Assembly: GCA_964403585.1 (NCBI GenBank)
Contig: CAYOFQ010000001.1
Coordinates: 1,408,826-1,472,825, forward strand
Source: an uncultured Gammaproteobacteria bacterium
GTDB taxonomy: Bacteria > Patescibacteriota > Microgenomatia > JALYQM01
Length of the DNA: 64,000 nucleotides
Reading direction: 5' to 3'
Part shown: positions 6,097 through 30,365 of the stretch, piece after piece
Layout of the letters: each line of letters starts with the position of its first letter
Position numbering within the stretch: the first letter of the stretch is position 1
Notes under the pieces: generated by a model
Told to the model about the DNA's origin: nothing
The model's database searches: none
Seen by the model: only the letters and a program-made list of their open reading frames with translations
Made by a program: the position numbers and the translations under genes

Positions 6097-6107
6097 GAAC
6101 CCGTTCC

Positions 6108-6851
6108 TCAGAGAATTCCTTCATATCCCTTCTCCTCCACATACTCGCTCAACTCTTTGCCACCTTCTTTTGCAACTTTTCCATCAGCTACAATTGAAAC
6201 CACTTCAGGCTCCAGATACTTTAAAATTCGCATGTAATGCGTGATAACCAAAACTGACGACTCGGGATGTGCGTCAAGATACTCTCTAACCCGGTACGCT
6301 ACATGTTTTAACGCATCCACATCCAATCCTGAATCAACCTCATCCAAAACTATCAGTTTCGGCTGCAGTACCGCCATCTGTAATATCTCATTTCGCTTTT
6401 TTTCTCCTCCCGAAAATCCTTCATTAAGATTTCGTTTCTGCATCCCTTCCTTCATCCCCAGCTTCTTGACCTCTTCCTCTAACACCATCTTAAATTTGAG
6501 AACCGACAACGGCTTCTCATCTTTTGAACGCGCAACCTCGCGTTGCGCCATACGGAGGAACTGTTCTACAGGCACCCCCGCAACTTCCTGAGGATACTGA
6601 AAACTTAAAAACAATCCCTTCTTAGCTCGTTCATCAACACTCATCGACAATAAATCTTCACTCAAAAATTCAACTGCGCCACCGGTGACACGATAGCGGG
6701 GGTGGCCCGCTAAAGCATACGCCAAGGTGGATTTTCCAGAACCGTTTGGCCCCATAATGGCATGCACTTTGCCTGCCGAAACCTCAAGATTAAGGCCTTT
6801 TAAAATCTCTTTTTTCTCAACATCTACATGTAAATCGGTAATTTTAAGCAT
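6108..6851 (-). CDS. sufC: Fe-S cluster assembly ATPase SufC
   Basis: ABC ATPase: Walker A GPNGSGKST, signature FSGGEKKR, Walker B LIVLDEVDSGLD. Typical SufC length of 247 aa. Confidence 0.9.
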   Translation of the reverse strand: MLKITDLHVDVEKKEILKGLNLEVSAGKVHAIMGPNGSGKSTLAYALAGHPRYRVTGGAVEFLSEDLLSMSVDERAKKGLFLSFQYPQEVAGVPVEQFLRMAQREVARSKDEKPLSVLKFKMVLEEEVKKLGMKEGMQKRNLNEGFSGGEKKRNEILQMAVLQPKLIVLDEVDSGLDVDALKHVAYRVREYLDAHPESSVLVITHYMRILKYLEPEVVSIVADGKVAKEGGKELSEYVEEKGYEGIL

Positions 6852-6965
6852 ATCCTGGACATTATACAGAATAAAGAAATTTGAGGCAAATCAAAGGTCC
6901 GGATTATTCATGGGCCGCAGCCTGAACCGGCAACTGGAAACTGAACGTTGAACCTATCACAAGTA

Positions 6966-7000
6966 AAAAAGGGAGTCCGTGTTCTTATGAGAACGGACTC
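6966..7000 (-). terminator. intrinsic terminator (minus strand) ending a short transcription unit
   Basis: On the minus strand, the 12-bp stem gggagtccgttc...gaacggactccc followed by TTTTTT. Confidence 0.5.
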
Positions 7001-7032
7001 CCAAATATTCACCTATACGAGCAGGCGTTGTC

Positions 7033-7140
7033 TAGCGTTTGATTTTTCGAGTTGCATACCGAGGTGAACGATCCAGTACGGCTTCAACAACTGCTATTGC
7101 AACGGATAAACCTGCAAGAGAGATACCTAACGTTAACACT
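7033..7140 (-). CDS. small hydrophobic peptide (35 aa, MLTLGISLAGLSVAIAVVEAVLDRSPRYATRKIKR), GTG start
   Basis: Perfect SD GAAGGAGGTG 5 nt upstream of GTG. One predicted TM helix plus a basic tail. Sits between a near-consensus minus-strand promoter (TTGACT-17-TATATT at about 7216-7250) and the terminator at 6966-7000. Confidence 0.3.
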
Positions 7141-7215
7141 GGACCACCTCCTTCTTCGTCTTTCATAGACCCGGCGAAGAGTACTTCCCCGAACTATCAC
7201 GACTATAAACAATAT

Positions 7216-7250
7216 ACAGGGAATATAGCTGTTCTAATAGCACAAGTCAA
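7216..7250 (-). promoter_or_regulatory. sigma70-like promoter TTGACT-N17-TATATT driving the small-peptide transcript
   Basis: Read on the minus strand: ttgacttgtgctattagaacagctatatt. Confidence 0.4.
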
Positions 7251-7319
7251 GAGATAGAGAATTAAATATACTCGCCAGGTATTCCTCAGAAAGTTGAACA
7301 TATACTATATAATACCCGT

Positions 7320-8843
7320 ATGCTCAAGAAGATTGGTTCATTCATCTATCACCACTCTCCATACATTCTGGCTGGCATTATTACCTTACTGTATACAGCA
7401 TTAGCCCTTTTACGGCATTACCATTTCCGTACCTACGGATACGATTTAGGCATTTATGACCAAACGGTCTGGCTATACAGCCGATTCATCTATCCCTTTG
7501 TTACGGTGGAATACAAATTCGCCCTACTCAATCACTTCTCTCCCAGTCTGGCATTATTTGCTCCAATCTATTGGATCTGGAGCGACCCCAAAGCGCTCCT
7601 CATTCTGCAAGCCGTAATGATGGGAGCTTCAGCCATTCCCTTGAATAAAATTGGCAAAAAACTCGGTTTACCCGTCTATCTACGGGCAGTCCTGACAGTC
7701 TCATACCTGTTATTTTATGGATACCAGTATTCTATCAATTTCGACGTTCACTCAATTGTCTACGGAACTGTACTCATACCTTGGTTTATTCTCGCCCTCG
7801 AAAACAAACAATACCGGCGTGCAGCCATATTCATGGCGATAATTTTAGGGATGAAAGAAAGTTTTCCGGTCATGACCTTCTCCATCGGCGTCATATATTT
7901 TTTGCGAGGGCAAAAAAAGGTTGGTGCAATTGTCGCAGCAGCATCTTTAGCCTACATGTTTACCGTACTCAAAATTCTTTTCCCCATTATGGAAAACTTA
8001 ACCAATGAGTATTATCGCTTTAGGTCCTCTAATCCGACAACAATCCAGGATATCGTACTTAACCTATTTAATACTCCTGAAAAACGGGAAGTATGGTCAC
8101 TCAGTTCCTTGTGGTTTGCCCTCATTCCGCTATTTTCGCCCGTCACCCTCATTGCCGCAATTACCGATGTTTCGTTTTATTTTATTCTTGGAAACAATCA
8201 CACTGAGACAGGAAATATTTACTTACAGTATCGTTCATCACTTGCTCCCTTACTCGCCTGGGCAACAATCTACGGAGCATACAATCTCCATAACCTGAAT
8301 AAATATACCGTCCCGCGTACAAATAAAAAGCTTCCTTCAATACCTTACCTTTTTATTGCCATCCTCTTAGCTTGCTCCTGGGCATATTTTCAACACACCT
8401 ATCATCTTCCGCTCAATACCTTGAGTAAGAATGTTTGGTACACCTGGCCGCAATGGATCGAAGACAACCAGAAGTTGCTTAAGCAAGTTCCCCCGAACGT
8501 ACCGCTTGCAGTTCAGGACAACCTTATCCCGCATATTCAGCAAAGGAAAGAAATGCATATCCTGTGGGCATATAAATTAAATGACGGATACCGTATCTTT
8601 AATCCCGCCAATTCCCCTTGCGGTCAGGAAAAATGCTTCTGGCTTAGTTACCACAAGAATGTTAAGTACCTAGTAACCGACACCCACGAGGGGCAAGGCC
8701 CGAGAACGCTCTTAATGGAAAATGAGAAAAAACTTGATGAAGGATTGGCTAACATGGAAAAAGCCGGATTTATCAGTTTAGTAGCCCGTGAAGGCAAAGC
8801 GGCCCTCTGGAAAGTTAATAAATACCCTGAGGATACACTATAA
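7320..8843 (+). CDS. polytopic membrane protein, DUF2079-like
   Basis: 507 aa, multiple TM helices. N-terminal YGYDLGIYDQ motif typical of the DUF2079 membrane-protein family. Confidence 0.5.
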   Translation: MLKKIGSFIYHHSPYILAGIITLLYTALALLRHYHFRTYGYDLGIYDQTVWLYSRFIYPFVTVEYKFALLNHFSPSLALFAPIYWIWSDPKALLILQAVMMGASAIPLNKIGKKLGLPVYLRAVLTVSYLLFYGYQYSINFDVHSIVYGTVLIPWFILALENKQYRRAAIFMAIILGMKESFPVMTFSIGVIYFLRGQKKVGAIVAAASLAYMFTVLKILFPIMENLTNEYYRFRSSNPTTIQDIVLNLFNTPEKREVWSLSSLWFALIPLFSPVTLIAAITDVSFYFILGNNHTETGNIYLQYRSSLAPLLAWATIYGAYNLHNLNKYTVPRTNKKLPSIPYLFIAILLACSWAYFQHTYHLPLNTLSKNVWYTWPQWIEDNQKLLKQVPPNVPLAVQDNLIPHIQQRKEMHILWAYKLNDGYRIFNPANSPCGQEKCFWLSYHKNVKYLVTDTHEGQGPRTLLMENEKKLDEGLANMEKAGFISLVAREGKAALWKVNKYPEDTL

Positions 8844-17680: not shown

Positions 17681-18109
17681 CTATTCGTGGCGACTGGTCA
17701 ATATAACCAAAACCAGTAACTGCAGCAGGATTGCCAAAGCCCATAACCGTTCCCCCGTTGACCAGTGAGGGAGAACCTGGTCCTTATAGGCCACCACAAT
17801 CGTCATAATAGTTACCCAAACCAGGTTTTGCAGGAGAGCTGAGCGTACATTCGCCTGAACCATCGCTCCGACATATAAGTGATAGAGAATAATCCCGGCA
17901 AAAAAGAAACCTGCCGAAAGGAACAATTTTGACCAGTGAATTGTCGGAAACCAGCTATGCGGATTTCGGGTCCATCCTAAACTCGCCGAAGAAACAGCAC
18001 TTCCGTCGGCAAAACCGGTAGCAGAAGCAAATACTAATCCTGCAACTATATAAAAAACTACGAGCATCGTACTTACTCTCGCTTTCTTTCTTTTTGGCAT
18101 ATGCCGCAT
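17681..18109 (-). CDS. small integral membrane protein (142 aa)
   Basis: Predicted TM helices, no motif. Confidence 0.35.
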   Translation of the reverse strand: MRHMPKRKKARVSTMLVVFYIVAGLVFASATGFADGSAVSSASLGWTRNPHSWFPTIHWSKLFLSAGFFFAGIILYHLYVGAMVQANVRSALLQNLVWVTIMTIVVAYKDQVLPHWSTGERLWALAILLQLLVLVILTSRHE

Positions 18110-18136: not shown

Positions 18137-19756
18137 CTAACTTTCAACTAAATGTCCGGGTATTATTCCTTCATCAAGATATTTCTGTCGCTCTTCGCCG
18201 GTTAATTCCTTAAATCCGACAATTTTACCTCGACAAACCACACTGTCACACATACACACAATCCCTCGGCTTATCTCTGATTCCATAGTTGCGTAGTCAA
18301 CTGCGATCTCATCTCCGGCAGCAATATCCCGCCGGGCTAAAACCCGAATCATCTTGGATTCATAGTCAGGTTCAACATAAACATTTCCATCACAGGAATG
18401 ATTCAAATAATGACCCCACAGAAAATTTCCCACTTCATCAATTGGCTCGATATGCTCATTTTGGGTTAATTGAAGTGAATACATTGTACGTATTGGGGAA
18501 AGCTGGCCCTCTACCGTAAAAAGCAAATCTCCTTTTTTAAAACTTTTCTTCGCATATATCCCAAGTTCGGATTCCAAAGTAGAGCTTGCTCGAACAACCA
18601 CATTTTCGTTCTCTGGATAGTCGATACTTTCTCTATCGTTAAGATAATAATAATGCGGCTCAGGTAAGGCATGATAGTGCGTAAAGAACATTGACGTATA
18701 TGCACCAACGTCATGAAGTATCACTCGATCTCCCATCTGTAAATTTTCAGGCAACATTACTTCAGTTGCCAATGTATCATCAGGATCAAGCGTATTCCCT
18801 GAAACGTTATACTTTACCGGTGGTCCATCTTTCAGAGATTCAATCTTATATGTCAGCTTCCCGCGGCTCTCCAAAATTTCAATCAAACCATGATATACAC
18901 CGAAATTCACAAATAACCAGCGGTTCTTATGCCGCTGAATAGAACGAATTACGCTCAGTATCATACAAGCGGCATCCGCAACCAGTACCCGTCCCGGTTC
19001 ACACCAGAACTCAATATCTTTAGGAAAACTCTTTAAATGCTGATGAATCACGCCTGAAAACTCTTCTAAAGTTGGACAGTCGTTAAACTGATACCGTGCG
19101 GGAAATCCACTGCCAATGTTTAAAATCCGCAACGTCGGCATCGCTTTGTAATATCGCTTAAATAACTCTTTACAATACAACAAAACATCCTTCCAAACGC
19201 CAGTCTCCATATTCTGTGAGCCGACATGGAAACAAATACCGGAAATTGCGATCCCTTGTTCAATTGCGTAATGAAAAATATCTTCTACTTCTTTAGGATT
19301 AGCGCCAAATTTGTCACTGTACTCATAAAACTTGCCCTCGCTTGGCGGCAATATTCGCATCATGAACATACTACCCGGCGCATTTTCATGCAAATGTCCC
19401 AACTCCTCTACCGAATCAAAGGTAAATTTTCGCACCCCGCGATCAAATGCTAAGGCCACGATATGAGCAAACTTAATCGGATGAGTGAACAGGATATTCT
19501 CAGAAGGAACACCTAAGCCAATCAGCTTGTCTATTTCACCTAAACTGGCAGCATCATACGAAAGGCCTCTCCGGTTTATTTCAAGCAATAATTTATCTAA
19601 AGGATTAGTCTTTGTAGAATAGAATATGCGGAATTCTGGAAACAATGAACTAAAAACATCAATATTAGATCTAAACTGATTTAAATCATAAACAAAAGCC
19701 GGAGTTTGACACTCCTGTGATAATAATTCAAAGGAGGTGTTTTGATCGGATGACAT
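18137..19756 (-). CDS. fusion protein: ornithine/DAP/arginine-decarboxylase-fold (fold III) PLP enzyme + C-terminal SET-domain methyltransferase
   Basis: N-terminal about 390 aa carries FYSTKTN (PLP Lys), NIGSGFP, CFHVGSQ, EPGR and DVGAYT motifs of the ODC/DapDC family. C-terminal about 140 aa carries the SET hallmarks NHSCDGN, GDEIAVDY and a post-SET CMCDSVVC. Confidence 0.75.
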   Translation of the reverse strand: MSSDQNTSFELLSQECQTPAFVYDLNQFRSNIDVFSSLFPEFRIFYSTKTNPLDKLLLEINRRGLSYDAASLGEIDKLIGLGVPSENILFTHPIKFAHIVALAFDRGVRKFTFDSVEELGHLHENAPGSMFMMRILPPSEGKFYEYSDKFGANPKEVEDIFHYAIEQGIAISGICFHVGSQNMETGVWKDVLLYCKELFKRYYKAMPTLRILNIGSGFPARYQFNDCPTLEEFSGVIHQHLKSFPKDIEFWCEPGRVLVADAACMILSVIRSIQRHKNRWLFVNFGVYHGLIEILESRGKLTYKIESLKDGPPVKYNVSGNTLDPDDTLATEVMLPENLQMGDRVILHDVGAYTSMFFTHYHALPEPHYYYLNDRESIDYPENENVVVRASSTLESELGIYAKKSFKKGDLLFTVEGQLSPIRTMYSLQLTQNEHIEPIDEVGNFLWGHYLNHSCDGNVYVEPDYESKMIRVLARRDIAAGDEIAVDYATMESEISRGIVCMCDSVVCRGKIVGFKELTGEERQKYLDEGIIPGHLVES

Positions 19757-19852
19757 ATAAAGAGCTAATATTATTGACTTTCATAAAGATAAGTATAACA
19801 ATGGAATTATTAGAAATGCAATATTTTTCTAAGATAAATAGATCAACAACGT

Positions 19853-20664: not shown

Positions 20665-20943
20665 ATGGACCTGTATAAACAAATTATTACCAATATTATT
20701 AAAGAGCAGCAATACATTATCGGACCACTTGCTGTAACACAAGCGAACAAAGTGCCTGGATTACATATTGAATCGGTAGACAATGTCAGCCTGGAAGGCG
20801 ACGGTAAAACCATCATCCAAAATCTAGTTGAGCGGTACTCTAAACTTTTCGGACAAGCCTCAGTACAAATATGCAAAGAAGCGATTGAACCGTTACAGGG
20901 TAAACTCCAACCGCAAGATTTACCGGATATATTAAAAGATTAA
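20665..20943 (+). CDS. small hypothetical protein (92 aa)
   Basis: ORF sits between the membrane protein and the HK with 5-nt gaps (operon-like). Confidence 0.3.
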   Translation: MDLYKQIITNIIKEQQYIIGPLAVTQANKVPGLHIESVDNVSLEGDGKTIIQNLVERYSKLFGQASVQICKEAIEPLQGKLQPQDLPDILKD

Positions 20944-20947
20944 CCAC

Positions 20948-22759
20948 ATGGCCAATATAGTTAACTTATCATTTTACGCTGACCTCCAGCAGTCGATGTT
21001 GGATATCGACGACACCGAAGTGCTGGTTATAACTGCATTGAATCAAGTCTCTACCGAACTGTCTGTGATTAACCTCACTGCCAAATACCTGAGCGCGCTC
21101 TTTCTTGATGAAGAAAAGCAAATCGCCCTGATATATACAAAAAATGAGCACACCAGTGAGTATGAACAGGCAGATACCAAAACTAATGCGGAAGCCCGTG
21201 AGCTGTATGAAAAATTAAATAATATACTTAATTCAGAGAACACTGTTAGATCGGCCATCCAAAATAAGAAAATAGCCATTATACAGGACAAGGATACAAT
21301 TATCCCTTCCAATGTACCAAATCGAGATGAAACTCAAGCAATACTGGTATCACCCATATATATTGCCAAAGGATTTCGGGGGGTAATTATTTACGGGTTA
21401 GATAAACCGCCAATAGAACTGGACCAGAACCAGCTCCAGGTGGTAAAAATTATGTCCAACCTTATTGGTCAATCCTTCAGATTACAGGACTCCCAAACAT
21501 CCATTACCACTATTACCCAGGAACTATACAAAACCAATGCTCAGCTACACCAGCTGGATAAAATGAAAGATCAGCTCATCGCAGTAACCTCACACGAACT
21601 ACGTACCCCGGCAACTGTTGTCCAAAATTACTTATGGATGGTTTTATCCAAACCAGCAGCAGGAACAGTGCTTTCGGACAAAGATAACGAACGTTTGAAA
21701 AACTCCTTTACCGGCATCCAAAACCTTATCCACCTTATCAACGACATTCTCGATGTATCCAAGATCGAAAGTGGGAGCATCGAACTAAACGTGCAGCCGG
21801 TTAAGTACTCTGATGTGGTTTTTGAAATAGTACGGGATCTGATGCCAAAAGCTCAAGCAAAAAAAATCGCGCTTACCGTTACCAAAGAGGAAAAGCTTCC
21901 GGATGTAATTCAAACAGATAGCGTCAGATTAAAGGAAATTCTCGTTAACCTGATCAGTAATGGAGTCAAATTTACCGAAAAAGGCTCCGTGAACATTCAT
22001 ATATCGCAAAAAGACAACCAGCTTCAGTTTGCTATCAAAGATACCGGCCGCGGAATTGCCGCAGACTTCCTTCCCAATCTATTTAAAAAATTCCACCGCG
22101 AGGACACCGCCCTAACTGCCTCGAATCCCGAAACCGGTGGTACCGGACTCGGACTATACATCACTAAATCCATGACCGAAATTATGCAGGGGAAAATTTC
22201 AGTTGAATCGGTACACAACCAGGGATCAACCTTCACCATAACTCTTCCGGTCAATCCCAGTCTTGTTCAACCACAAAAGCCTGCCTCTGTTGCCACTCCT
22301 TTTATTCACGAGGGAGTCATTACCCGTTCAGATTATCTTCGATCGGTCGGACAATCCACTACCCCTCCTGCAAAATCTAAACCTCAGGATACCCGCAAAA
22401 AAATTCTCCTTATCGAAGATGACCAGGATATGCAGGATCTGTATGGAGATTATCTTTCAGATATCTATAACATCACCATTGCCCACAACGGCCAAGAGGG
22501 CCTCGAAAAAATGGAAAACGAGCAATATGATCTGGTTTTGCTGGACATTATGATGCCCAAAATGGACGGTGTAGAATTCCTGGAAAAGAAAAAAGGACAC
22601 GAGAAAAATTTTGGTGTACCGGTAGTGCTCCTCACTAACCTCGCAGCCGAAGAAGTCCTCAACAAATGCATACAATTGGGCGCCAAGTCGCTTATTATGA
22701 AGTCGGACATCACCCCGGATCAAATCCCACCGGTTATTAATCAGGTCTTACAATCTTAA
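20948..22759 (+). CDS. hybrid sensor histidine kinase (N-terminal sensory domain, HisKA, HATPase_c, C-terminal receiver)
   Basis: HisKA SHELRTP. HATPase N/G boxes (LISNGVKFT, DTGRGIA, GGTGLGLYI). C-terminal REC with ILLIEDD...DLVLLDIMMPKMDG. Confidence 0.85.
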   Translation: MANIVNLSFYADLQQSMLDIDDTEVLVITALNQVSTELSVINLTAKYLSALFLDEEKQIALIYTKNEHTSEYEQADTKTNAEARELYEKLNNILNSENTVRSAIQNKKIAIIQDKDTIIPSNVPNRDETQAILVSPIYIAKGFRGVIIYGLDKPPIELDQNQLQVVKIMSNLIGQSFRLQDSQTSITTITQELYKTNAQLHQLDKMKDQLIAVTSHELRTPATVVQNYLWMVLSKPAAGTVLSDKDNERLKNSFTGIQNLIHLINDILDVSKIESGSIELNVQPVKYSDVVFEIVRDLMPKAQAKKIALTVTKEEKLPDVIQTDSVRLKEILVNLISNGVKFTEKGSVNIHISQKDNQLQFAIKDTGRGIAADFLPNLFKKFHREDTALTASNPETGGTGLGLYITKSMTEIMQGKISVESVHNQGSTFTITLPVNPSLVQPQKPASVATPFIHEGVITRSDYLRSVGQSTTPPAKSKPQDTRKKILLIEDDQDMQDLYGDYLSDIYNITIAHNGQEGLEKMENEQYDLVLLDIMMPKMDGVEFLEKKKGHEKNFGVPVVLLTNLAAEEVLNKCIQLGAKSLIMKSDITPDQIPPVINQVLQS

Positions 22760-25536
22760 CTCTCTTGTGCCTTTTTAAGCGTAAACGTAAACGTACTTCC
22801 TTTACCCGGAGTTGAAGTAACTGAAACCGTTCCCCCCATAGCTTCAATATATTTTTTACAAATATACAAACCTAACCCGGTACCGGTTGTCTGCGCAACA
22901 GTCGCATACTGGTTATCCAAACGGCCAAATTTGGTAAACAACTTTGGCATATCTTCCGGGTTAATACCTTTACCGGTATCGGTTACCGACACAGACACAA
23001 AATCACCCTTATCTAACACCGTTGTTGTAATCGACCCCTGATCGGTAAATTTAAGCGAATTACCTATAAGATTAATAAGCACTTCGTGCACCTTATCCCC
23101 ATCGGCAAAGACCAGTACTTTATCCTCACTCTCAATACCTAATTTAATATTCTTCTCATCAGCCTTAATCTGCAATTCTTCGTTAACCGCTTTGATCAAA
23201 TCAACCAGCTCAAAATTCTTGTTCTCAATTTTAGTCCTTCCACCCTCAATCCGGGAAATAGTTAACATATCATTAACGAGATTAATTAAGCGCGATGTCG
23301 ACTGCGCCACCCGCTGCAGGTAATACCGCTGCTTCTCCTGCAAATCACCACCCTTACCGTTCAAAAGCATCCAAACATATCCATTAATAGCCGTCATCGG
23401 CGTTCTGAGCTCATGCGAAGCCACCGAAACGAACTCATCCTTCATCTTATCCAGCTCAATAAGCTTCTGGTTACTAACCTCAAGGGCCTCATTCGCCGTC
23501 TTCGCTTCTTCGTACAAATACGAGTTCTCTAATGCAATCCCTACCTCATCCATGAAGGCATCAAGCACATTCATTTCAGACGCCGGTACATCGTGCGGAG
23601 CTATATGCATAGCTAATGCCAAGGTCCCAAGAGGCTTATCCTTTGAAAACAAAGGATATACAATCATTCCCTTCATTCCGATTACTTGCTGTATTGTGTT
23701 TGATATTGGCCGTGGTAATCCAGGCGCCAATGCATCAGCAAGCGACGTCGTTGTAATTTTGCTACGCAAATCTAAAGCCTGCACCGCCATACTTCGCTTT
23801 TCATCAAGAGGAGTAGTAATATTTTCAAACGGACCTGGTAAGACAGAAAGTGCCCTTTTTATCGTAGGAGTCTGCGAAACTGCAGTTGGCACCAATACAC
23901 TTCTTTTAGAGTCTACTAAACTAATAATTGCGCCGTCATATCCTAACTCCCAAGAAATGGTATCTACTACTTTCTGACACATTTCCTTTAAGTCCAAAGT
24001 GGTGGTAATAATATTCTCCATGTGACGCAGAATTTCTAAGTTTTTATTTTTCTGCTTAAGCTCAAGGGTCGCTCTATCCACTTCAATTTTCAATCTCTCA
24101 CCAAAATCTCTTGAGTGCATAAAAATAAGAATATTTTCGATTCCAATTGCAGCTTGCAATGCAAATGTCTCAAGAACAGAAACATCCTCTCTAGTAAAAG
24201 CATCACCTGATTTTTTATCACCGATAATTATCGCTCCAATAACTTCATTCTTAATTTTTAAAGGTAGAACAATACTGACCTCATTTTCTAACATCCATTC
24301 AATTACTTGATTCTTATTATGGTCTTCTTTATCAATAACATCATCTTGTAAATCCTCTAACAGAACAGAACCACTACTGGTTTGTAATAAACTAGTTAGT
24401 ACTGACAACATAACCAGTTGTTTATTAGATTCTCCATAGTTATAAACTACAAATTCTTTACTCTGCGGAAATATTGTAGACAGATTATTTCTTCCTTGTA
24501 ATTTAACAGCAAAAGCCATATGCGAGATATGTAAGTTAGAATTAATAATTGTGTATACATTTTTTAATACCTCTTCAAAACCCAAAGTTGAATTTAAAGC
24601 GAGACTAAGCTCTCTTAACAAGTCAGACGGATTATAAACACTACTAAATAAATATTTATCAGTTGCTTTTCTTATATAATAAGCTAAAGAGTCATAAACT
24701 AAAGATAATAAGAAAGCTGCGAGAACAAAAATGTAAAGTAGAGTATAATCAAAATTATCACCTTTAAAACTGAAATATACAAAACCAGCAATCGAAAAAA
24801 TACCTATGATTGAAATTGTAATCAGAAGCTGAGCCAAGCCTCGCCTCAAAGCCAATCTGATATCTAGTAATCTATGTTTAATGATTGCGTATGATATTAA
24901 GGCAACAAAAATTAAAGAAAATGACGGACCTAAAGCTACAAAACCAGAAAACTGGAACAATACCACAGCGACAAAATTAGTCACAACTTGCAAAGCGAAA
25001 GTAAGTATTACTCCTATATATAAATATTTAAATTGAAGCTTAATTATTCCCTTTGCTTTTTTATATCTATGAATAGTTACCCAAATACCGTAAATCAACG
25101 AACCAAAAAATAAAACGACATAAAACAGTATTCCAAAATTTGGTTTAGGGCTAATGGTCGGAACTAATGTAACTCCTGAAAAGACTAATGGAGTCATCGC
25201 CATTAAAGCCACTGCAATAGTTGAAAAAATTAGCAAAACTACACTTCTTTTCCTAACAGAAATTTCGCTTCTTGGGAATGCTAAAAGCAACAATGCTACT
25301 GTTGGACCTAGTGGCGCTGTAGCAACCATAACCATTCTAATCCAAAATAAAGTTATTTCAGCAGAATTTGAGTTTAGTGAAAAATAATTAAAAATCGACC
25401 AAGAAGCAAAAATAATAGTTAGAATAGCTATTAATTTATGTGTAGTACTTCTAGAATTTTTTGAAAAAACTAATAAACCTAAAGATAAATTTATTAATGC
25501 AGTAAAAATGACTATTGCTAAAGTCAGAAAACTCAT
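22756..25536 (-). CDS. multi-TM sensor histidine kinase with GAF domain(s)
   Basis: 926 aa. N-terminal about 300 aa with 7+ TM helices, GAF-like middle, HisKA SHELRTPMTAI, HATPase (LIGNSLKFT, DTGKGI, GTGLGLYI). Stop codon overlaps the stop of the convergent HK (TTAA at 22756-22759). Confidence 0.85.
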   Translation of the reverse strand: MSFLTLAIVIFTALINLSLGLLVFSKNSRSTTHKLIAILTIIFASWSIFNYFSLNSNSAEITLFWIRMVMVATAPLGPTVALLLLAFPRSEISVRKRSVVLLIFSTIAVALMAMTPLVFSGVTLVPTISPKPNFGILFYVVLFFGSLIYGIWVTIHRYKKAKGIIKLQFKYLYIGVILTFALQVVTNFVAVVLFQFSGFVALGPSFSLIFVALISYAIIKHRLLDIRLALRRGLAQLLITISIIGIFSIAGFVYFSFKGDNFDYTLLYIFVLAAFLLSLVYDSLAYYIRKATDKYLFSSVYNPSDLLRELSLALNSTLGFEEVLKNVYTIINSNLHISHMAFAVKLQGRNNLSTIFPQSKEFVVYNYGESNKQLVMLSVLTSLLQTSSGSVLLEDLQDDVIDKEDHNKNQVIEWMLENEVSIVLPLKIKNEVIGAIIIGDKKSGDAFTREDVSVLETFALQAAIGIENILIFMHSRDFGERLKIEVDRATLELKQKNKNLEILRHMENIITTTLDLKEMCQKVVDTISWELGYDGAIISLVDSKRSVLVPTAVSQTPTIKRALSVLPGPFENITTPLDEKRSMAVQALDLRSKITTTSLADALAPGLPRPISNTIQQVIGMKGMIVYPLFSKDKPLGTLALAMHIAPHDVPASEMNVLDAFMDEVGIALENSYLYEEAKTANEALEVSNQKLIELDKMKDEFVSVASHELRTPMTAINGYVWMLLNGKGGDLQEKQRYYLQRVAQSTSRLINLVNDMLTISRIEGGRTKIENKNFELVDLIKAVNEELQIKADEKNIKLGIESEDKVLVFADGDKVHEVLINLIGNSLKFTDQGSITTTVLDKGDFVSVSVTDTGKGINPEDMPKLFTKFGRLDNQYATVAQTTGTGLGLYICKKYIEAMGGTVSVTSTPGKGSTFTFTLKKAQES

Positions 25537-25585
25537 ACAAATAGAGTATCTCTTGCCAATTAAATTTGCAATGGAATCAGAAAAA

Positions 25586-26788
25586 TTATTTTCTTACAGA
25601 AGTTCTCAGATCTATCATTACTTCGTCTTTTATATCAGAGCCTTCAAGATATTCCATAATAGCCGCACCCACAATTGCGCTAGATAACCGAGCTGCAATA
25701 CCTGATTGTGGCCAAAAGTTATGCCCATCAGCTACCACAGCCCCAACCGCAGATTGAAAATCATGAGTCATAAAGTGACCTATCATCTTACCAGCAATAA
25801 TTGTTTTTATATTCTGCGGCAACTCTTTTCCTTGATAATACATTTCCTCAAGCATTACCATATCATCAGGAGTTAATCGCCCACCAAATAATGTACTTCC
25901 TGGAAAATGGATCTGGTTGGCACCTGCCAATGAGATGTCTGTACCCATAAAGACTGGTGAATTTGATTTTTCACGAATAATTCCTTTTAGATAGAGTTGA
26001 TCAATTTCCTCTAGTACAATTCCTTCTAAACCTACCCACTCTAAGACTTTATGTAGTGAAACAGTATCTGACGCATCCTCTAATCCAAGATTTTGAGAAT
26101 AAGCTTTATAGTTTCCATAAGGAAAAAAATCCAATGCTCTTTGCAAAAAATGAGTCGCATGATTCAATCCATAGGAATGTACGCCACTAGAGGGGAGTCG
26201 CTGTGTATCGTGAGGGGCTACAGTTCCCCCATCTATAACAGTAAGATTTTCAGCACCTAACCACATAAGCACTTCAGCAATTGAGAAACCGACACCCGCA
26301 CCAATAATCGCAATTTTAGTCGTCCTTAAACGTTCATAAGCATCTTTAGTAAAGATCCCTTTATTGCGAGAAAAAACAATTTCCCGCATTTGATCGTAAG
26401 GAAGAATTGAAACAAACCGTCCTTCATTCAACCAAGAAAACTCAGCAATAACACTAGAGTCCAAAAAACTTGAATCTGAAATTATTCTTCTCCGTATTTC
26501 ATCATCATTGTCTTTTCTCAATTTTGCATGATCTATAAGTTGTAATGGATATTCATCTACAAGGAACCTTAATTCTAAAGCACGAGCTAACATTTGAGGA
26601 ACATCGTTACCAATTCGCCATAACAAGAATCGCTGATTATCATGTCCTTGACCTAAAGCATGAGTACGCAATGAAGAAATGAACGCAGCCTTGCCTAGCT
26701 CATCTTCTAATTGGTATAAATTAACATGAGGAGATGACTCTGTGCTTACCTTTAACTCAGAATTAGTAATAAATAAATTCTCATGCAT
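25586..26788 (-). CDS. E1/ThiF/MoeB-like adenylyltransferase-fold protein with about 170-aa N-terminal extension
   Basis: KIAIIGAGVGFSIAEVLMWLGAENLTVIDGGTVAPHDTQR matches the E1-like Rossmann/nucleotide-binding signature (GxGxxG...LxLxDxDxVexsNLnRQ). No C-terminal CxxC pairs. The start is 1 nt after the upstream gene's stop. Confidence 0.6.
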   Translation of the reverse strand: MHENLFITNSELKVSTESSPHVNLYQLEDELGKAAFISSLRTHALGQGHDNQRFLLWRIGNDVPQMLARALELRFLVDEYPLQLIDHAKLRKDNDDEIRRRIISDSSFLDSSVIAEFSWLNEGRFVSILPYDQMREIVFSRNKGIFTKDAYERLRTTKIAIIGAGVGFSIAEVLMWLGAENLTVIDGGTVAPHDTQRLPSSGVHSYGLNHATHFLQRALDFFPYGNYKAYSQNLGLEDASDTVSLHKVLEWVGLEGIVLEEIDQLYLKGIIREKSNSPVFMGTDISLAGANQIHFPGSTLFGGRLTPDDMVMLEEMYYQGKELPQNIKTIIAGKMIGHFMTHDFQSAVGAVVADGHNFWPQSGIAARLSSAIVGAAIMEYLEGSDIKDEVMIDLRTSVRK

Positions 26789-26789
26789 A

Positions 26790-27704
26790 TTAAGCTGTTA
26801 CAAACTCATATAAACGAGGCGTATCTGTTCTGCCATATAAGTGAGGCAACCAATACTGCGAGAACTTCTTATAATAAGCATTAGCCATTACTGCTTCCTG
26901 AAGAATTTGCATCTCTTCTACTGACCCTACTCCTGCATATAATAAATTTAATGCATCAACATCTGTGGTCAAATCTACCCCTAACTCATAACCTGGAATT
27001 TGTTTGAGAGACATCGGTATCTCAACAACTTCAATGCCTCCTGCCTTTACATTTCTAACAACTCTTCTTGGCATTACAGCCGCAAACGACTCTACAGGCG
27101 GAAATTTATTCTTACTTATCTCAAAACCTAAACGTAGTAAGCTACCTGTAAGTAAACCAGGGATACCTTGCAACTTACGTATATCTTCTACTAAACAATA
27201 TCTACCTACTGTAGCAACAGTAGAGTAAGGTTTTCCTACTTCTTCATTAGGCCATTTAGCTGACACTAAATCCATTTCTGCAATAGGTGACATGCCTGGA
27301 ATTCCACTATCTGTACCAAACACAAATCTCATAGTTGAAGTAACAATACGTCCCTCTTGGTTTGGTAGGTTCGTTACTGCAGCTAATACTACAGATCTAC
27401 CCTCTACTTCATTTCCGTCCTTACAAAGCAACTGATAAACCTCAGCTTGTGAAAGACGATGCTCTGGGTTAGCTAAAGGAGCATAATTAGCAGCCACAGT
27501 CTGTAGTGTAGCCTCAAGCAATTCGGGATCAGTCGTAACGTCAAGATACTCAGTATTTTTGCCTACATACTCAGAAGTCAAGTTAGGTGCAATATTGTAT
27601 CTTATTTCAAGACTTTTTGTACGTCTAACGCTGGGAATTCCTGATTCTAGTAAGGGATTCCCTTCTTTAATAACAGTAGTAGCTCTCGTTTCTAAAACTG
27701 GCAT
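26790..27704 (-). CDS. uncharacterised 304-aa protein, translationally coupled partner of the E1-like gene
   Basis: No clear family. Weak nitroreductase/SagB-like hints only (SVRRTKS near the N-terminus, NLPNQ). AT-rich codon usage distinct from neighbours. Confidence 0.45.
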   Translation of the reverse strand: MPVLETRATTVIKEGNPLLESGIPSVRRTKSLEIRYNIAPNLTSEYVGKNTEYLDVTTDPELLEATLQTVAANYAPLANPEHRLSQAEVYQLLCKDGNEVEGRSVVLAAVTNLPNQEGRIVTSTMRFVFGTDSGIPGMSPIAEMDLVSAKWPNEEVGKPYSTVATVGRYCLVEDIRKLQGIPGLLTGSLLRLGFEISKNKFPPVESFAAVMPRRVVRNVKAGGIEVVEIPMSLKQIPGYELGVDLTTDVDALNLLYAGVGSVEEMQILQEAVMANAYYKKFSQYWLPHLYGRTDTPRLYEFVTA

Positions 27705-27708
27705 AAGA

Positions 27709-27745
27709 CAAAAAAAGCGCTACTCCACTAACTAGGAGTAGCGCT
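27709..27745 (-). terminator. intrinsic terminator/attenuator in the 5' leader of the E1-like operon
   Basis: Minus strand: agcgctactcc-tagttagt-ggagtagcgct followed by TTTTTTT, ending 5 nt before the ATG of the 304-aa gene. Confidence 0.5.
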
Positions 27746-27787
27746 TTAAACACCAAAATTCATAAGAATAATACTATAAGTTGTCAT
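27746..27787 (-). CDS. 13-codon leader ORF (MTTYSIILMNFGV) between promoter and attenuator
   Basis: ATG 8 nt after AGG. Stop TAA abuts the terminator hairpin. Could be a leader peptide or a short precursor peptide. No conservation data. Confidence 0.2.
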   Translation of the reverse strand: MTTYSIILMNFGV

Positions 27788-27796
27788 AAAAAAACC

Positions 27797-27851
27797 TAAA
27801 TGTGACATTTGGAGCGCAATTATAGCACATATATACCGCAATGTCAACACT
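27797..27851 (-). promoter_or_regulatory. consensus sigma70 promoter (TTGACA-N17-TATAAT) with 13-bp perfect palindromic operator AAATGTGACATTT at the transcription start
   Basis: Minus strand reads ttgacattgcggtatatatgtgctataattgcgctccaaatgtcacattt. Confidence 0.45.
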
Positions 27852-27887
27852 ATAAGACATATTAATTTTTCTTTCTATATTTAAAAA

Positions 27888-27921
27888 AATGCCTACTCTA
27901 TAGAGTAGGCATAAAATATCT
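27888..27921 (-). terminator. intrinsic terminator after the XRE-like gene / small TM ORF
   Basis: Minus strand: tgcctactcta-tagagtaggca followed by TTTTTTT. Confidence 0.45.
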
Positions 27922-28164
27922 AGCGATGGCTATAACCATCCCGCTTACATCACTAAGCCAAATAAGTTCAGTCAGATACACCATAAAATTTCTGTATAAT
28001 TCTAATATTATAAGATTCCTTAAGGCACAACACAAGTACGATAATCCCACTGTTATAAAAATAACATATATATTATAATAAATTATAACATTAATAACTG
28101 GTGTACTGCGATCATAATTGCAATCTATCTCTCCCTTTTTAAACAAATTCTTGTCCCAGGTCAT
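27898..28164 (-). CDS. small membrane protein (88 aa), overlaps the 3' end of the XRE-like gene
   Basis: Two predicted TM helices. Overlap of 26 nt with the upstream ORF. Very AT-rich. Confidence 0.3.
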   Translation of the reverse strand: MTWDKNLFKKGEIDCNYDRSTPVINVIIYYNIYVIFITVGLSYLCCALRNLIILELYRNFMVYLTELIWLSDVSGMVIAIARYFMPTL

Positions 28165-29206
28165 AATCCGTTAATATATATAATCCTGGATTTGCCTCCC
28201 AAATAGAAGTTAAATTAAGATAATCCCTATAAGCGACCGGATAAAGATATTGAGAATTTGGCATTGTATAGTATGGGATAGCATCCGGAACCTTCTTAAC
28301 ATTAATCTCGGCTTCTGCCAGCATGTCTAAAACAAATGAAAAAACTATAGCATAAATAATTCTTACTCTTCTTCTTCTAGCAATATTACATATAAAATTA
28401 AAACCTTTTCTACAAATAATTGAATTATATTGCCAAGCCCAATTAGGGATAACTAGTCTATCCAGCTCACCTATTTCGCTTATCGACAATTGTAAATGTT
28501 CGTGAGGCCAACCATATGGAAGATCCATAAGCTCCATAATACTTAGTGGGCTTCGAGTCTCTGAATTGCCTTGCAAAAAACGAATTGTTGTAGAAAGATA
28601 TTCTCTTCCTGTATTCGGGTCAGTTGTGACACCAATAATTTCATCAGAAAAGGAATTATTAGAATAGGGATCCTTTAATAATTCCTCAAAGTAGTGTTCA
28701 GGAGGTTTTTGCATTGAAGTGCTTGTTGCATAATAGCCAGCCTGGGCACAGTTAGCTTGAAAGGACCAAAAGTTTTTAATCTTTTCGTCGCTAATCTCAC
28801 GAAGGGTATAAAATTGAATATTTTCGGAAGTTATTAATGTATTATTAAATATTGAACTTGGCTCAATTAGTTGTGAGTATTTAGAATAAGGCGACAACAT
28901 TCTATTCGTATATCCCATCTCAAGTTTCTCTTCATCATTCAGCCCTCTTAAACCAAGTGAAAGCAGTATTTCATCAGCATTGTCTAACTCTGTTATAGCA
29001 CCATTATTAATGAATATCTTTATCAAAGCTAAAATTATTCTACGATCTTTTGGAACACGTTCTCCATTCTTCCATTTAGAAAATATACTATCCTCATAGA
29101 CAAAACCCTCTTCAGCTAAAGCCGACCCAAATTTCCCGTAAGTATCTAATCCTGCTTTAAGGCGATAATAATTAAATAACTCTCCAAAATTTTTATTCGT
29201 GTTCAT
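28139..29206 (-). CDS. XRE-family helix-turn-helix domain protein with about 290-aa uncharacterised C-terminal domain
   Basis: N-terminal FGELFNYYRLKAGL...FGSAL...SKWKNGERVP fits the HTH_XRE pattern. The remainder is unknown. Confidence 0.55.
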   Translation of the reverse strand: MNTNKNFGELFNYYRLKAGLDTYGKFGSALAEEGFVYEDSIFSKWKNGERVPKDRRIILALIKIFINNGAITELDNADEILLSLGLRGLNDEEKLEMGYTNRMLSPYSKYSQLIEPSSIFNNTLITSENIQFYTLREISDEKIKNFWSFQANCAQAGYYATSTSMQKPPEHYFEELLKDPYSNNSFSDEIIGVTTDPNTGREYLSTTIRFLQGNSETRSPLSIMELMDLPYGWPHEHLQLSISEIGELDRLVIPNWAWQYNSIICRKGFNFICNIARRRRVRIIYAIVFSFVLDMLAEAEINVKKVPDAIPYYTMPNSQYLYPVAYRDYLNLTSIWEANPGLYILTDYDLGQEFV

Positions 29207-29367
29207 AAGTGTTATTAAAAAGATATTACTTGAATATTATATTAAGGTCAATAATTCAGCAAAAACCCTCCTCCGTGACTCACCTCACAGACAACTTTGT
29301 CCAAAAATTAGACAATTTTGTCATTCACCTCCCCATTATATGTCTATAAAATAAGGATAAAGCAGAT

Positions 29368-29670
29368 ATGCAAGAATATATCCAGAACCAAATTCAAAAA
29401 TACCAACACACACAACCCGATGGGAAGCAGGAATGTTTTTTGCATATCTGCCGAGAAACACTGGAGTACTACTACAAAGGAATGGTTTCCGAAAAAGACA
29501 TTGTTACCGTAATGGAAGCTTTTCTGCAATTTAAAGAACTTCTTTCGGATAAATATACCCGCCACATTATTGGCACTGCCGGAATGCTCGAGATGCCGGA
29601 AGAATTCGCTATAAAATCTCACCAAGAAATTATTTCTGAGTTGGCTCAAATTACTGCAATAGCGCACTAA
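29368..29670 (+). CDS. hypothetical protein (100 aa)
   Basis: ORF with a plausible start. No motif. Confidence 0.35.
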   Translation: MQEYIQNQIQKYQHTQPDGKQECFLHICRETLEYYYKGMVSEKDIVTVMEAFLQFKELLSDKYTRHIIGTAGMLEMPEEFAIKSHQEIISELAQITAIAH

Positions 29671-29954
29671 TGAATTCAAAAATAAGCCCATAGTAATTGA
29701 TTTTACATTAAAAAACTGCTATAATACTCTATCGTTTTAGTTACGGCCAGTACGCTGGCCTGCTAACTATAATGGTCTGAGTTTAAACCAAACTCAGCAA
29801 GTTCCTTAACAGATAGAAGCAGAAAAAAACGTAAGCGGCTAAATTGAACTCAAAACAATTTGAATTCAGCTCAGCCGCTTACTAAAGCAAGACAAACTGA
29901 CGGCGTTGTGCCGTAGCTTGCTGACTGTAACCGGCCGAAAGGAGTTCAGAGCTT

Positions 29955-30365
29955 ATGACAATTAGCTCTGCGATTCTGATCGCCAGCACACTACTGACGA
30001 TCATTCAGGGAATGTTTGGTTTTGCTACACACTACACAATGCCGACCACGAGCTCACTGCAAAACACCGTCCACGCGTCCGCCATTCAGTCTGTCCCGAC
30101 TACCAACACAGTCACTAACGCATCGCCTGACAGGGAATACCCAATCACCACCACTCGCCCCTGCGAAATCCGCAAGGTCAGTGCTAGCGTCGATGGTGAC
30201 GGCTGGGTCGGAGAGCTTACGCTCGGCGGGCTGATTTACGCGGTATATGGGTATTCAACCTCGCCTTTCGAAGGCTCGTGCGAACTAGAGTCAATCTACT
30301 ACGGATACCGCACCAGCTACACGATCGTCGAATCCAAAGCACGATTCCCCATGTACTTCTTCTGA
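29955..30365 (+). CDS. small secreted Cys-containing protein (136 aa), paralog of 30444-30782
   Basis: N-terminal hydrophobic signal. Shared C...DGxW...G...G...C...Y pattern with the next ORF. GC-richer than surroundings. Confidence 0.4.
   Translation: MTISSAILIASTLLTIIQGMFGFATHYTMPTTSSLQNTVHASAIQSVPTTNTVTNASPDREYPITTTRPCEIRKVSASVDGDGWVGELTLGGLIYAVYGYSTSPFEGSCELESIYYGYRTSYTIVESKARFPMYFF

Follow-up and report, generated by a model that had tools for sequence, protein, structure and literature searches.

A decarboxylase-SET methyltransferase fusion with leucine at the catalytic cysteine position: a candidate two-step enzyme of small-molecule metabolism

The 64,000-nucleotide stretch of contig CAYOFQ010000001.1 (GenBank assembly GCA_964403585.1) analysed here, referred to as the window, encodes a 539-residue protein in which a fold-type III, pyridoxal 5′-phosphate (PLP)-dependent decarboxylase is joined to a C-terminal SET-domain methyltransferase (Table 1). 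This architecture had been proposed by a first-pass annotation of the DNA and is borne out. The open reading frame (ORF) lies uninterrupted on the minus strand, with no internal stop across all 539 residues and neither stop nor frameshift between the halves. Three Pfam families exceed their curated cut-offs, namely Orn_Arg_deC_N (residues 27-260, E=2.3e-38, 132 bits against 23.4), Orn_DAP_Arg_deC (up to residue 351, E=2e-11, 44 bits against 23) and SET (residues 398-488, E=3.1e-12, 47 bits against 22.4), and this three-domain assignment is far beyond chance. Every motif quoted in the annotation was found in the translation, among them FYSTKTN (nt 19604-19624), NIGSGFP, FHVGSQN, CEPGRV, DVGAYT and GNTLDPDD (nt 18776-18799) as well as NHSC (nt 18392-18403), GDEIAVDY and CMCDSVVC. 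A complete C-terminal SET domain is thus supported by profile, motifs and predicted fold. An AlphaFold2 model built from a 79-sequence alignment (pLDDT 92.4, pTM 0.76) consists of two well-folded domains, both modelled with confidence, and its sole low-confidence internal stretch is residues 376-382 (pLDDT < 50). Both the sequence and the length of the linker vary among the fusions. The catalytic residues of the two domains are invariant in clade alignments. A role as diaminopimelate decarboxylase was ruled out, as the protein scores 150 bits on the NCBIfam lysA equivalog, well under the cut-off of 298.

The identical 539-residue protein is encoded by a 1.57-Mb NCBI contig and, separately, by a Logan assembly. 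A search of 5.8 billion proteins yielded 16 full-length decarboxylase-SET fusions with 35-70% identity, and three further fusions (L137, L138, L145) came from an independent metagenome scan. Orthologous fusions with 64-70% identity on other contigs of metagenome-assembled genomes (MAGs) have the same gene order as the window. The relatives originate from an unclassified 'bacterium' MAG, from Patescibacteria, Paceibacteria and Solirubrobacteraceae MAGs (one of the fusions carries the latter annotation) and from groundwater metagenomes. The host of one fusion of 39% identity (P0013) is clearly of another lineage, carrying F420, LigD/Ku and sortase genes. A scan of genome collections was dominated by the generic SET pattern YLNHSCxPN; the fusion is under-represented there, and no reliable picture of its taxonomic spread emerges. 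Decarboxylase-only proteins of about 50% identity group in the same decarboxylase clade, and in every context fetched a SET gene adjoins them (L091/L092, L093/L094, L095, L096, L097, L109, L110). In L091/L092 the two genes are on the same strand, and their 12-nt intergenic spacer occupies the position of the linker; in L093/L094, from a Patescibacteria MAG, they are convergent. The window gene is thus a Rosetta-stone fusion of two genes that are adjacent in sister lineages, and the mixture of fused and adjacent forms indicates that the enzymes are functionally coupled. The first-pass annotation had named separate genes in all relatives, with the junction an assembly artefact, as grounds for rejecting the fusion. 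Some relatives do have separate genes, others are fused, and as the separate halves are always adjacent they support a functional fusion.

As stated in the annotation, a fusion of this kind appears to be undescribed: no publication was found on a decarboxylase-SET fusion, on the TLDPDD clade of decarboxylases or on the sensor/kinase module described below. What had been overlooked is that a SET protein and a fold-type III decarboxylase are already linked, as separate genes, in the synthesis of dimethylsulfoniopropionate (DMSP) (PMC7496086, PMC12542666). BurB is a SET-domain methyltransferase converting L-Met to S-methylmethionine (SMM), with crystal structures containing Met or SMM plus S-adenosylmethionine (SAM), and it holds its amino acid via main-chain contacts (PMC12542666). 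The decarboxylase BurI/SMMDC turns SMM into 3-dimethylsulfoniopropylamine (DMSP-amine) in B. thailandensis and S. mobaraensis (PMC7496086, PMC12542666), and the aminotransferase and aldehyde dehydrogenase BurD/E complete DMSP (PMC7496086). BurI/SMMDC is like diaminopimelate decarboxylase (DAPDC), whereas the plant SMM decarboxylase is derived from ornithine decarboxylase (ODC) (PMC11464771). Among loci with BurB orthologues, that of B. ubonensis contains the bur cluster, and in L089 burB is followed by TauD, Aminotran_3 and Aldedh genes and a large ORF running off the locus. In Desulfatibacillum aliphaticivorans (L090) the operon reads MetK, SET, fold-type III decarboxylase (4-nt overlap), Aminotran_3, Aldedh. 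The SET-adjacent DAPDC-like enzymes of Desulfatibacillum (L090) and a Rhodospirillaceae genome (L038) served as stand-ins for B. thailandensis BurI and are called BurI-like; that of L090 scores 218 bits on TIGR01048 lysA.

By profile and by fold (TIM barrel plus beta domain) the decarboxylase half is a fold-type III (group IV) enzyme of the ornithine/lysine/arginine decarboxylase (ODC/LDC/ADC) branch, outside the DAPDC-like lineage of BurI/SMMDC. A phmmer search of the PDB returned the Lys/Orn decarboxylase 5gjm (E=8e-47), and Foldseek matched the model to 2plj and 5gjm (Lys/Orn), 2nva (Chlorella-virus Arg) and 1f3t (T. brucei ODC) with TMt of ~0.9. The PLP lysine is K49. This residue and D68, E74, R134, H177, G215-G217, E253-R256, D324 and Y353, which serve cofactor binding and catalysis, are invariant or nearly so in the clade alignments, and D327 is also kept. 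With T. brucei ODC numbering mapped through the offset in the PDB phmmer alignment ranges, the position of the ODC Cys360 is Leu323, in the motif GNTLDPDD instead of the usual GP(S/T)CDxxD. The first-pass annotation had thus correctly noticed the missing Cys; its loss is clade-wide and tied to SET partnership. Across 129 aligned relatives this position is Leu in 29, Ile in one and Cys in 94, and all 30 Leu/Ile proteins are SET-fused or SET-adjacent. The motif G(N/K/W)TLDPDD occurs in all of the at least 29 SET-linked ODC-like decarboxylases, and every decarboxylase partnered with an NNMT-like methyltransferase (see below) retains GP(S/T)CDxxD. Besides the DPDD motif, the Cys-less clade is marked by YS(T/V)KTN instead of YA(V/M)KAN and by a GLIEILES segment. 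As the cofactor and catalytic residues are all invariant, the Cys-less protein appears to be a specialised rather than a decayed enzyme. The BurI-like decarboxylases also lack the Cys, having Asn where it is expected (GNINES in L090, GNINEP in L038), and as the residue differs, the two losses are probably convergent.

The SET half has the profile, the NHSC and DY motifs, the post-SET CxCx4C and the fold of a class V SAM-dependent methyltransferase. Its clade-invariant residues are G399, H435, N452-H-S-C455, Y488, E492, C501, C503 and C508. The closest solved sequence is BurB (9l4t/9l4v, E=2e-10), ahead of MLL1 (E=4e-5), and BurB also ranks first in Foldseek (E=8e-10). Identity to BurB-family proteins is 29-34%. 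By clade and pocket residues the window SET is not of BurB type, but it shares the genetic coupling to a decarboxylase. The fusion does not qualify as a secreted SET effector of the AnkI/LegAS4/RomA kind: the NCBIfam AnkI/LegAS4 equivalog gave 16.7 bits against a cut-off of 550, in the SET region only, and Pfam detected no ankyrin domain in the fusion. In a representative library, the top-scoring relatives of the SET half (P0171, P0172) are proteins of 1449-1479 residues with the unusual architecture of 6-8 tandem SET-like stretches.

Table 1. Features of the decarboxylase-SET locus (window coordinates; residues refer to the fusion protein).
Feature	Position	Strand	Remarks
Whole decarboxylase-SET fusion ORF	18137..19756	-	539 aa + stop, ATG start
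Fold-type III PLP decarboxylase domain, residues 1-372, ODC/LDC/ADC-like branch	18641..19756	-	Pfam, phmmer, Foldseek
Interdomain linker, residues ~373-385	18602..18640	-	low pLDDT at 376-382; gap-rich alignment region
SET domain + post-SET CxCx4C + C-terminal helical tail, residues 386-539	18137..18601	-	Pfam, PDB search, Foldseek
tm142, 142-aa membrane protein with four transmembrane helices (4-TM)	17681..18109	-	starts 27 nt past the fusion ORF; TM1 with a conserved acidic residue
tm121, tm142 paralogue, 121 aa, 30% identity	17122..17487	-	small 4-TM protein
Divergent intergenic region, 96 bp, fusion / TM268	19757..19852	.	blocks CATTGTTATAC and GTCAATA
TM268, ~8-TM multi-pass membrane protein, 268 aa	19853..20659	+	divergent from fusion; invariant W, Y, D, E rich
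s92, 92-aa soluble protein	20665..20943	+	always after TM268, sometimes fused to it
Hybrid histidine kinase HisKA-HATPase_c-REC	20948..22759	+	Pfam; completes TM268-s92-kinase trio

Downstream of the fusion, tm142 is probably part of the same operon and is a candidate exporter or transporter of its product. Members of its family are located directly beside the decarboxylase in L004, L006, L101-103, L111, L112, L136, L122 and L175. As an aside, they adjoin all three decarboxylase types in other loci. No Pfam match was found for tm142, and for TM268, s92, tm142 and tm121 neither Pfam nor NCBIfam gave a credible family even at relaxed thresholds. Profile-profile comparison with hhalign detected no relationship between tm142 and the small membrane proteins resembling small multidrug resistance (SMR) transporters.

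On the other side of the fusion, TM268 shares homology with the membrane domain at the N-terminus of certain histidine kinases, such as the PAS-kinase in L093, and is presumed to be the sensor. TM268 and s92 form a single ORF in L165-168, L171, L120 and L174. A kinase occupies the equivalent position in L004, L006, L008, L013, L091, L093, L095 and most metagenome loci. All relatives examined have the trio of TM268, s92 and histidine kinase next to their decarboxylase-SET pair, among them the 39%-identity fusion from the other lineage. The blocks CATTGTTATAC and GTCAATA between the divergent genes are kept among relatives (L004, L006, L091) and may be shared promoter or regulator sites. A promoter-like TTGACT..AACAAT at 19774-19802 (+) overlaps GTCAATA; the promoter and terminator scan around the locus found nothing above shuffled expectation overall. 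A riboswitch search around the operon found none, and no tRNA, rRNA, riboswitch or other Rfam family reached the gathering score across the 64-kb window.

Further observations concern the surroundings of the module. A second kinase of 926 residues (HisKA_7TM-GAF-GAF-HisKA-HATPase_c, 22756-25536, minus strand) is convergent with the hybrid kinase and is kept in the closest relatives L004 and L006; a HisKA_7TM kinase also lies near the cassette of L003. The G+C content falls to 0.32-0.37 at positions 24001-30000, against ~0.43 elsewhere in the window. This segment, which contains the 5′ part of the HisKA_7TM-GAF kinase gene, a ThiF-family gene (25586-26788) and Pfam-less ORFs, may have been acquired. 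In L091 (1-5219) and L095 (1-5238 and 10640-14821), the cassette and sensor module borders on genes for type IV pili (PilM, pilins, prepilin peptidase, T2SSE/F ATPases), and single-domain receivers accompany the module in L008, L093 and L095.

The position of the fusion relative to TM268 permits a wider comparison. A metagenome scan seeded with TM268 gave 241 relatives, and 29 of the 41 TM268 loci with at least 2.6 kb of upstream sequence carry a decarboxylase and/or methyltransferase cassette. Seven cassettes consist of a TLDPDD decarboxylase and SET, fused in three cases. Another seven pair a canonical, Cys-containing L/ODC-like decarboxylase with a class-I methyltransferase of the NNMT/PNMT/TEMT family, and in four, plus five more in truncated loci, SET is accompanied by a divergent AdoMet_dc-like pyruvoyl decarboxylase. 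The remaining eleven are minor forms (three decarboxylase-only, three SET-only, two NNMT-only, two canonical SpeD-type AdoMet_dc plus SET, one unclassified AdoMet_dc-like). The NNMT-like partner matches PF01234 (Pfam E ~1e-35), with NNMT, INMT and PNMT as best PDB matches, and such cassettes occur in L101-L105, L118, L119 and L122 (in L102, for example, at 6103-7218 and then 7228-8004). To our knowledge this family is rarely discussed in bacteria. Pairing follows a strict rule, with Cys-less or AdoMet_dc-like decarboxylases accompanying SET and canonical ones the NNMT-like enzyme.

The AdoMet_dc-like partner is a protein of 124-126 residues encoded directly upstream of a SET of the window clade (L003 5340-5720, L013 9445-9825, L012 9606-9980 and at least nine metagenome loci). 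It has the motif F-I-E/Q-T-S-N-x-V-C-H (Gln in L012) with a conserved Cys97, and a PDB sequence search gave no match. The AdoMet_dc family canonically acts on SAM, a sulfonium amino acid. The partner is thus far a candidate pyruvoyl decarboxylase, with either a sulfonium or a basic amino acid as possible substrate. SMR-like 4-TM genes stand beside the pair in L008, L095, L096 and L099, with sub-threshold matches to Multi_Drug_Res (E=3.5e-4), EbrA (E=5e-5) and QacCGHJ (E=2e-4), and EamA-type genes are present in L012 and L048; small membrane proteins of these two kinds are common neighbours. With the L090 enzymes as jackhmmer seeds, homologues of Aminotran_3 and Aldedh were found neither in the 64-kb window nor in the TM268-linked loci, apart from an aldehyde dehydrogenase fragment in L162; a complete DMSP pathway (BurB-I-D-E) was accordingly not found in the window or the relatives' loci. 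There is no polyketide synthase or nonribosomal peptide synthetase context around the fusion.

Two further arrangements were observed. A third type of decarboxylase adjoins TM268 in L111, L112 (6782-7912) and L136, with no methyltransferase nearby; its motif GGPTCVSLD keeps the Cys and has Val for the distal-amine Asp, a substitution that hints at a non-basic substrate. In L009 (314-4064, Desulfobacteraceae MAG) a protein with a weak match to Neur_chan_LBD, the domain of pentameric ligand-gated channels, is followed by an NNMT-like methyltransferase, a Cys-containing ODC-like decarboxylase and SET, which may be another arrangement of amine synthesis and receptor.

Taken together, it is likely that the fusion performs a two-step small-molecule pathway in which one metabolite is methylated and decarboxylated. 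Both enzymes are swapped for non-homologous ones of the same chemistry in the same slot, so that decarboxylation plus methylation of one metabolite is what is conserved, and this replacement strongly favours a small-molecule pathway over protein methylation. Of the functions offered by the first-pass annotation, the small-molecule one is therefore strongly supported; in the precedent the methyl group goes to sulfur, ahead of decarboxylation, which differs from the channelled decarboxylation plus N-methylation proposed there, with N-methylation as a possible variant. A specific version, Met to SMM to DMSP-amine, is put forward tentatively, with somewhat less than even confidence. The SET domain would transfer a methyl group from SAM to a free amino acid, at its side chain, most likely turning Met into SMM in a BurB-like reaction, and the Cys-less PLP domain would then decarboxylate the 'onium' amino acid to a doubly cationic methylated amine, most likely DMSP-amine. 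If SET recognises its amino acid by backbone groups, as BurB does, it must act before decarboxylation. The decarboxylase would then have to accept a methylated 'onium' side chain, which would explain the Cys-to-Leu exchange in the pocket beside the distal-cation Asp. In the NNMT-like systems, by comparison, a standard amino acid can be decarboxylated first and the amine N-methylated afterwards. As no aminotransferase or aldehyde dehydrogenase follows, the amine itself rather than DMSP is the probable end product. The small 4-TM proteins downstream probably carry it across the membrane, and the TM268-s92-histidine kinase module would regulate the cassette or sense its product. Substrate (Met or a basic amino acid), step order, export and sensor role are what we infer here. 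In every small-molecule version the product would be a small, doubly cationic methylated amine, which fits the SMR/EamA-type neighbours.

By analogy, the Met to SMM to DMSP-amine route is favoured by the BurB precedent, by the AdoMet_dc-like alternative partner (SAM being an analogue of SMM) and by the Cys loss common to BurI-like enzymes. A number of results weigh against this route, several of which would suit N-methylation instead. In that alternative SET would N-methylate the side-chain amine of a free basic amino acid (Lys, Orn or Arg-derived) and the Cys-less decarboxylase would act after or before, leading to an N-methylated or quaternary diamine, for instance trimethylcadaverine (from Lys by way of trimethyl-Lys) or methylputrescine. 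The ancestral chemistry of SET domains is Lys N-epsilon methylation, and methylation of free lysine is a side activity of Rubisco LSMT, also a SET enzyme (Trievel 2003, as cited in PMC8085414). In a neighbour-joining tree the window SET clade falls with other decarboxylase-partnered SETs and is not nested in the BurB clade. The derived residues of the latter (LHSC, His72, Ser88-Gly89, Asp at the 438-equivalent) are absent; in their stead the window clade has the generic bacterial or protein-lysine methyltransferase (KMT)-type NHSC (N452), Tyr/Thr426, Gly448, H/A449 and Pro438 and the KMT-type Tyr. MLL SET domains fit the model about as well as BurB (MLL1/3, Foldseek E ~1e-8, equal TM-scores). 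The window decarboxylase, of L/ODC ancestry, is only 23% identical to the BurI-like enzyme of L090, and the solved structures closest to it are those of Lys/Orn and Arg decarboxylases. It keeps D324, the equivalent of the distal-amine-binding D361 of ODC, which suits a basic amino acid no less than a sulfonium. The domain also contains additional acidic residues (DPDD, E293, E296). Sister cassettes have a canonical L/ODC-like enzyme with a PNMT/NNMT/INMT-like amine N-methyltransferase in the same slot, so that by analogy N-methylated diamines are possible products. In L048 (9541-13497) a SET gene of a different clade belongs to a polyamine operon, in a row with a small EamA-like protein, a SpeA-type Arg decarboxylase and a deoxyhypusine-synthase-like protein. 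Nevertheless, physiological action on a free amino acid has been shown for a single SET enzyme, the S-methyltransferase BurB, which is also the top sequence match. Moreover, the alternative partner of the window SET clade comes from the AdoMet_dc family, whose parent substrate is a sulfonium amino acid, and the other SET-adjacent Cys-less decarboxylases are BurI-like (L090 in a locus of DMSP genes, L038 similar). On balance, we regard N-methylation as less likely than the sulfonium route.

The remaining alternatives are less probable. Loss of the Cys, as in the C360A/S variants of T. brucei ODC, reportedly diverts ODC to decarboxylation-dependent transamination. Given the Cys-to-Leu exchange throughout the clade and a cassette without a separate aminotransferase, the PLP domain could therefore carry out such a transamination or an oxidative deamination and release an aldehyde, for example DMSP-aldehyde from SMM as proposed for Wollastonia. 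This is improbable, however, since no aldehyde dehydrogenase is nearby to take the aldehyde, single-turnover transamination would leave pyridoxamine phosphate without obvious recycling, and the BurI-like enzymes of L090 and L038 are Cys-less as well, characterised BurI/SMMDC yielding DMSP-amine (PMC12542666). The first-pass annotation had also considered methylation of a protein target directed by the PLP domain. Apart from BurB, characterised bacterial SET proteins are protein KMTs, the generic KMT motifs are kept, the small conserved protein s92 is encoded nearby, and there is the weak match to Legionella AnkI/LegAS4. SET might thus modify a nucleoid protein, a pilin, s92 or the kinase, with the decarboxylase independent or serving targeting or regulation. 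That match is far below its cut-off. In the same slot a small-molecule methyltransferase of NNMT/PNMT type can take the place of SET, and the decarboxylase is exchanged among three unrelated or divergent types. The strict co-variation of SET and the active-site motif of the decarboxylase points to a common metabolite, and a protein substrate is quite improbable. Finally, a single error could join two genes lying 12 nt apart as in L091, and the fusion might then be an artefact of assembly, frameshift or stop codon. The chance of this is negligible in view of the identical ORF in two assemblies, the additional metagenome fusions, and 15 further fusions at 35-70% identity from different samples and phyla-level backgrounds that share the position of the linker.

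A two-step synthesis of a methylated amine would have implications beyond the fusion itself. As a Rosetta stone, the fusion connects small-molecule metabolism with a widespread, uncharacterised clade of bacterial SET proteins, which are commonly taken for protein-lysine methyltransferases, and the Cys-less ODC-like decarboxylases of its clade form a new subfamily. With DMSP-amine as the product, organosulfonium synthesis would extend beyond marine and plant systems, possibly to bacteria of the candidate phyla radiation (CPR) type or of groundwater, and would end at the amine; this would be a new non-marine source and role of sulfonium metabolites. The strict linkage of the cassette to an undescribed membrane sensor/kinase trio provides a testable candidate ligand-receptor pair, and an amine-synthesis cassette tied to a dedicated sensor kinase may represent a new system. 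The pattern is found mostly in Hainich-groundwater-labelled contigs and Patescibacteria-assigned MAGs. A still broader scheme, speculative and in our judgement unlikely as a whole, would make the fusion the 'synthase' of a modular small-molecule signalling system, mostly in Patescibacteria (CPR)-assigned MAGs and groundwater-labelled contigs. A cassette of variable composition (TLDPDD-type, AdoMet_dc-like or canonical ODC-like decarboxylase; SET or NNMT-like methyltransferase) would make a doubly charged methylated amine, the small 4-TM proteins would export it, and the TM268-s92-histidine kinase trio would sense it. Output would pass through single-domain receivers, with the type IV pili whose genes adjoin the module in L091 and L095 as possible targets.

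Compared with known systems, the decarboxylase half shares with 5gjm, 2plj, 2nva and 1f3t (26-29% identity) the fold, the PLP Lys, the Gly loop, EPGR and the equivalents of D361 and Y389. It differs from them in Leu for Cys360, YSTKTN for YAVKAN, the GLIEILES segment, DPDD and the C-terminal SET domain. The SDC enzyme of Spartina anglica, likened here by its description, is likewise of ODC lineage and was recruited to a sulfonium amino acid (PMC11464771), showing that the ODC branch is able to evolve sulfonium specificity. In contrast to the fusion, this plant enzyme has no SET domain and is partnered by MMT, a methyltransferase with no relation to SET. SET KMTs (MLL/KMT2, ASH1L, vSET, Legionella RomA/LegAS4) have the SET fold, the NHSC and Tyr motifs and the post-SET Zn-Cys cluster in common with the fusion, which is only ~22% identical to them, has no chromatin or ankyrin modules and stands in a context indicating a metabolite substrate.

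The sole precedent with characterised enzymes is BurB and BurI of Burkholderia thailandensis, corresponding to MSMT and SMMDC of Streptomyces mobaraensis, where a SET methyltransferase and a fold-type III decarboxylase act on one free amino acid and catalyse the opening two steps of the bacterial route to DMSP by methionine methylation. In the BurB-orthologue locus L090 the two genes are adjacent and overlapping, and both the BurI-type decarboxylases (L090, L038) and the fusion are without the Cys of ODC and DAPDC. Unlike these systems, the fusion joins both enzymes in one chain, in the order decarboxylase then SET. Its decarboxylase is of the ODC/LDC/ADC branch, with Leu for Cys where the BurI-like enzymes have Asn, and its SET domain forms a separate clade without the BurB-specific residues. 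In place of nearby BurD/BurE-type genes, the window and the relatives' loci have the TM268-s92-histidine kinase module. The fusion thus follows the two-enzyme logic of BurB and BurI, and what is new is the lineage of its decarboxylase, its SET clade, the absence of downstream DMSP enzymes and its setting.

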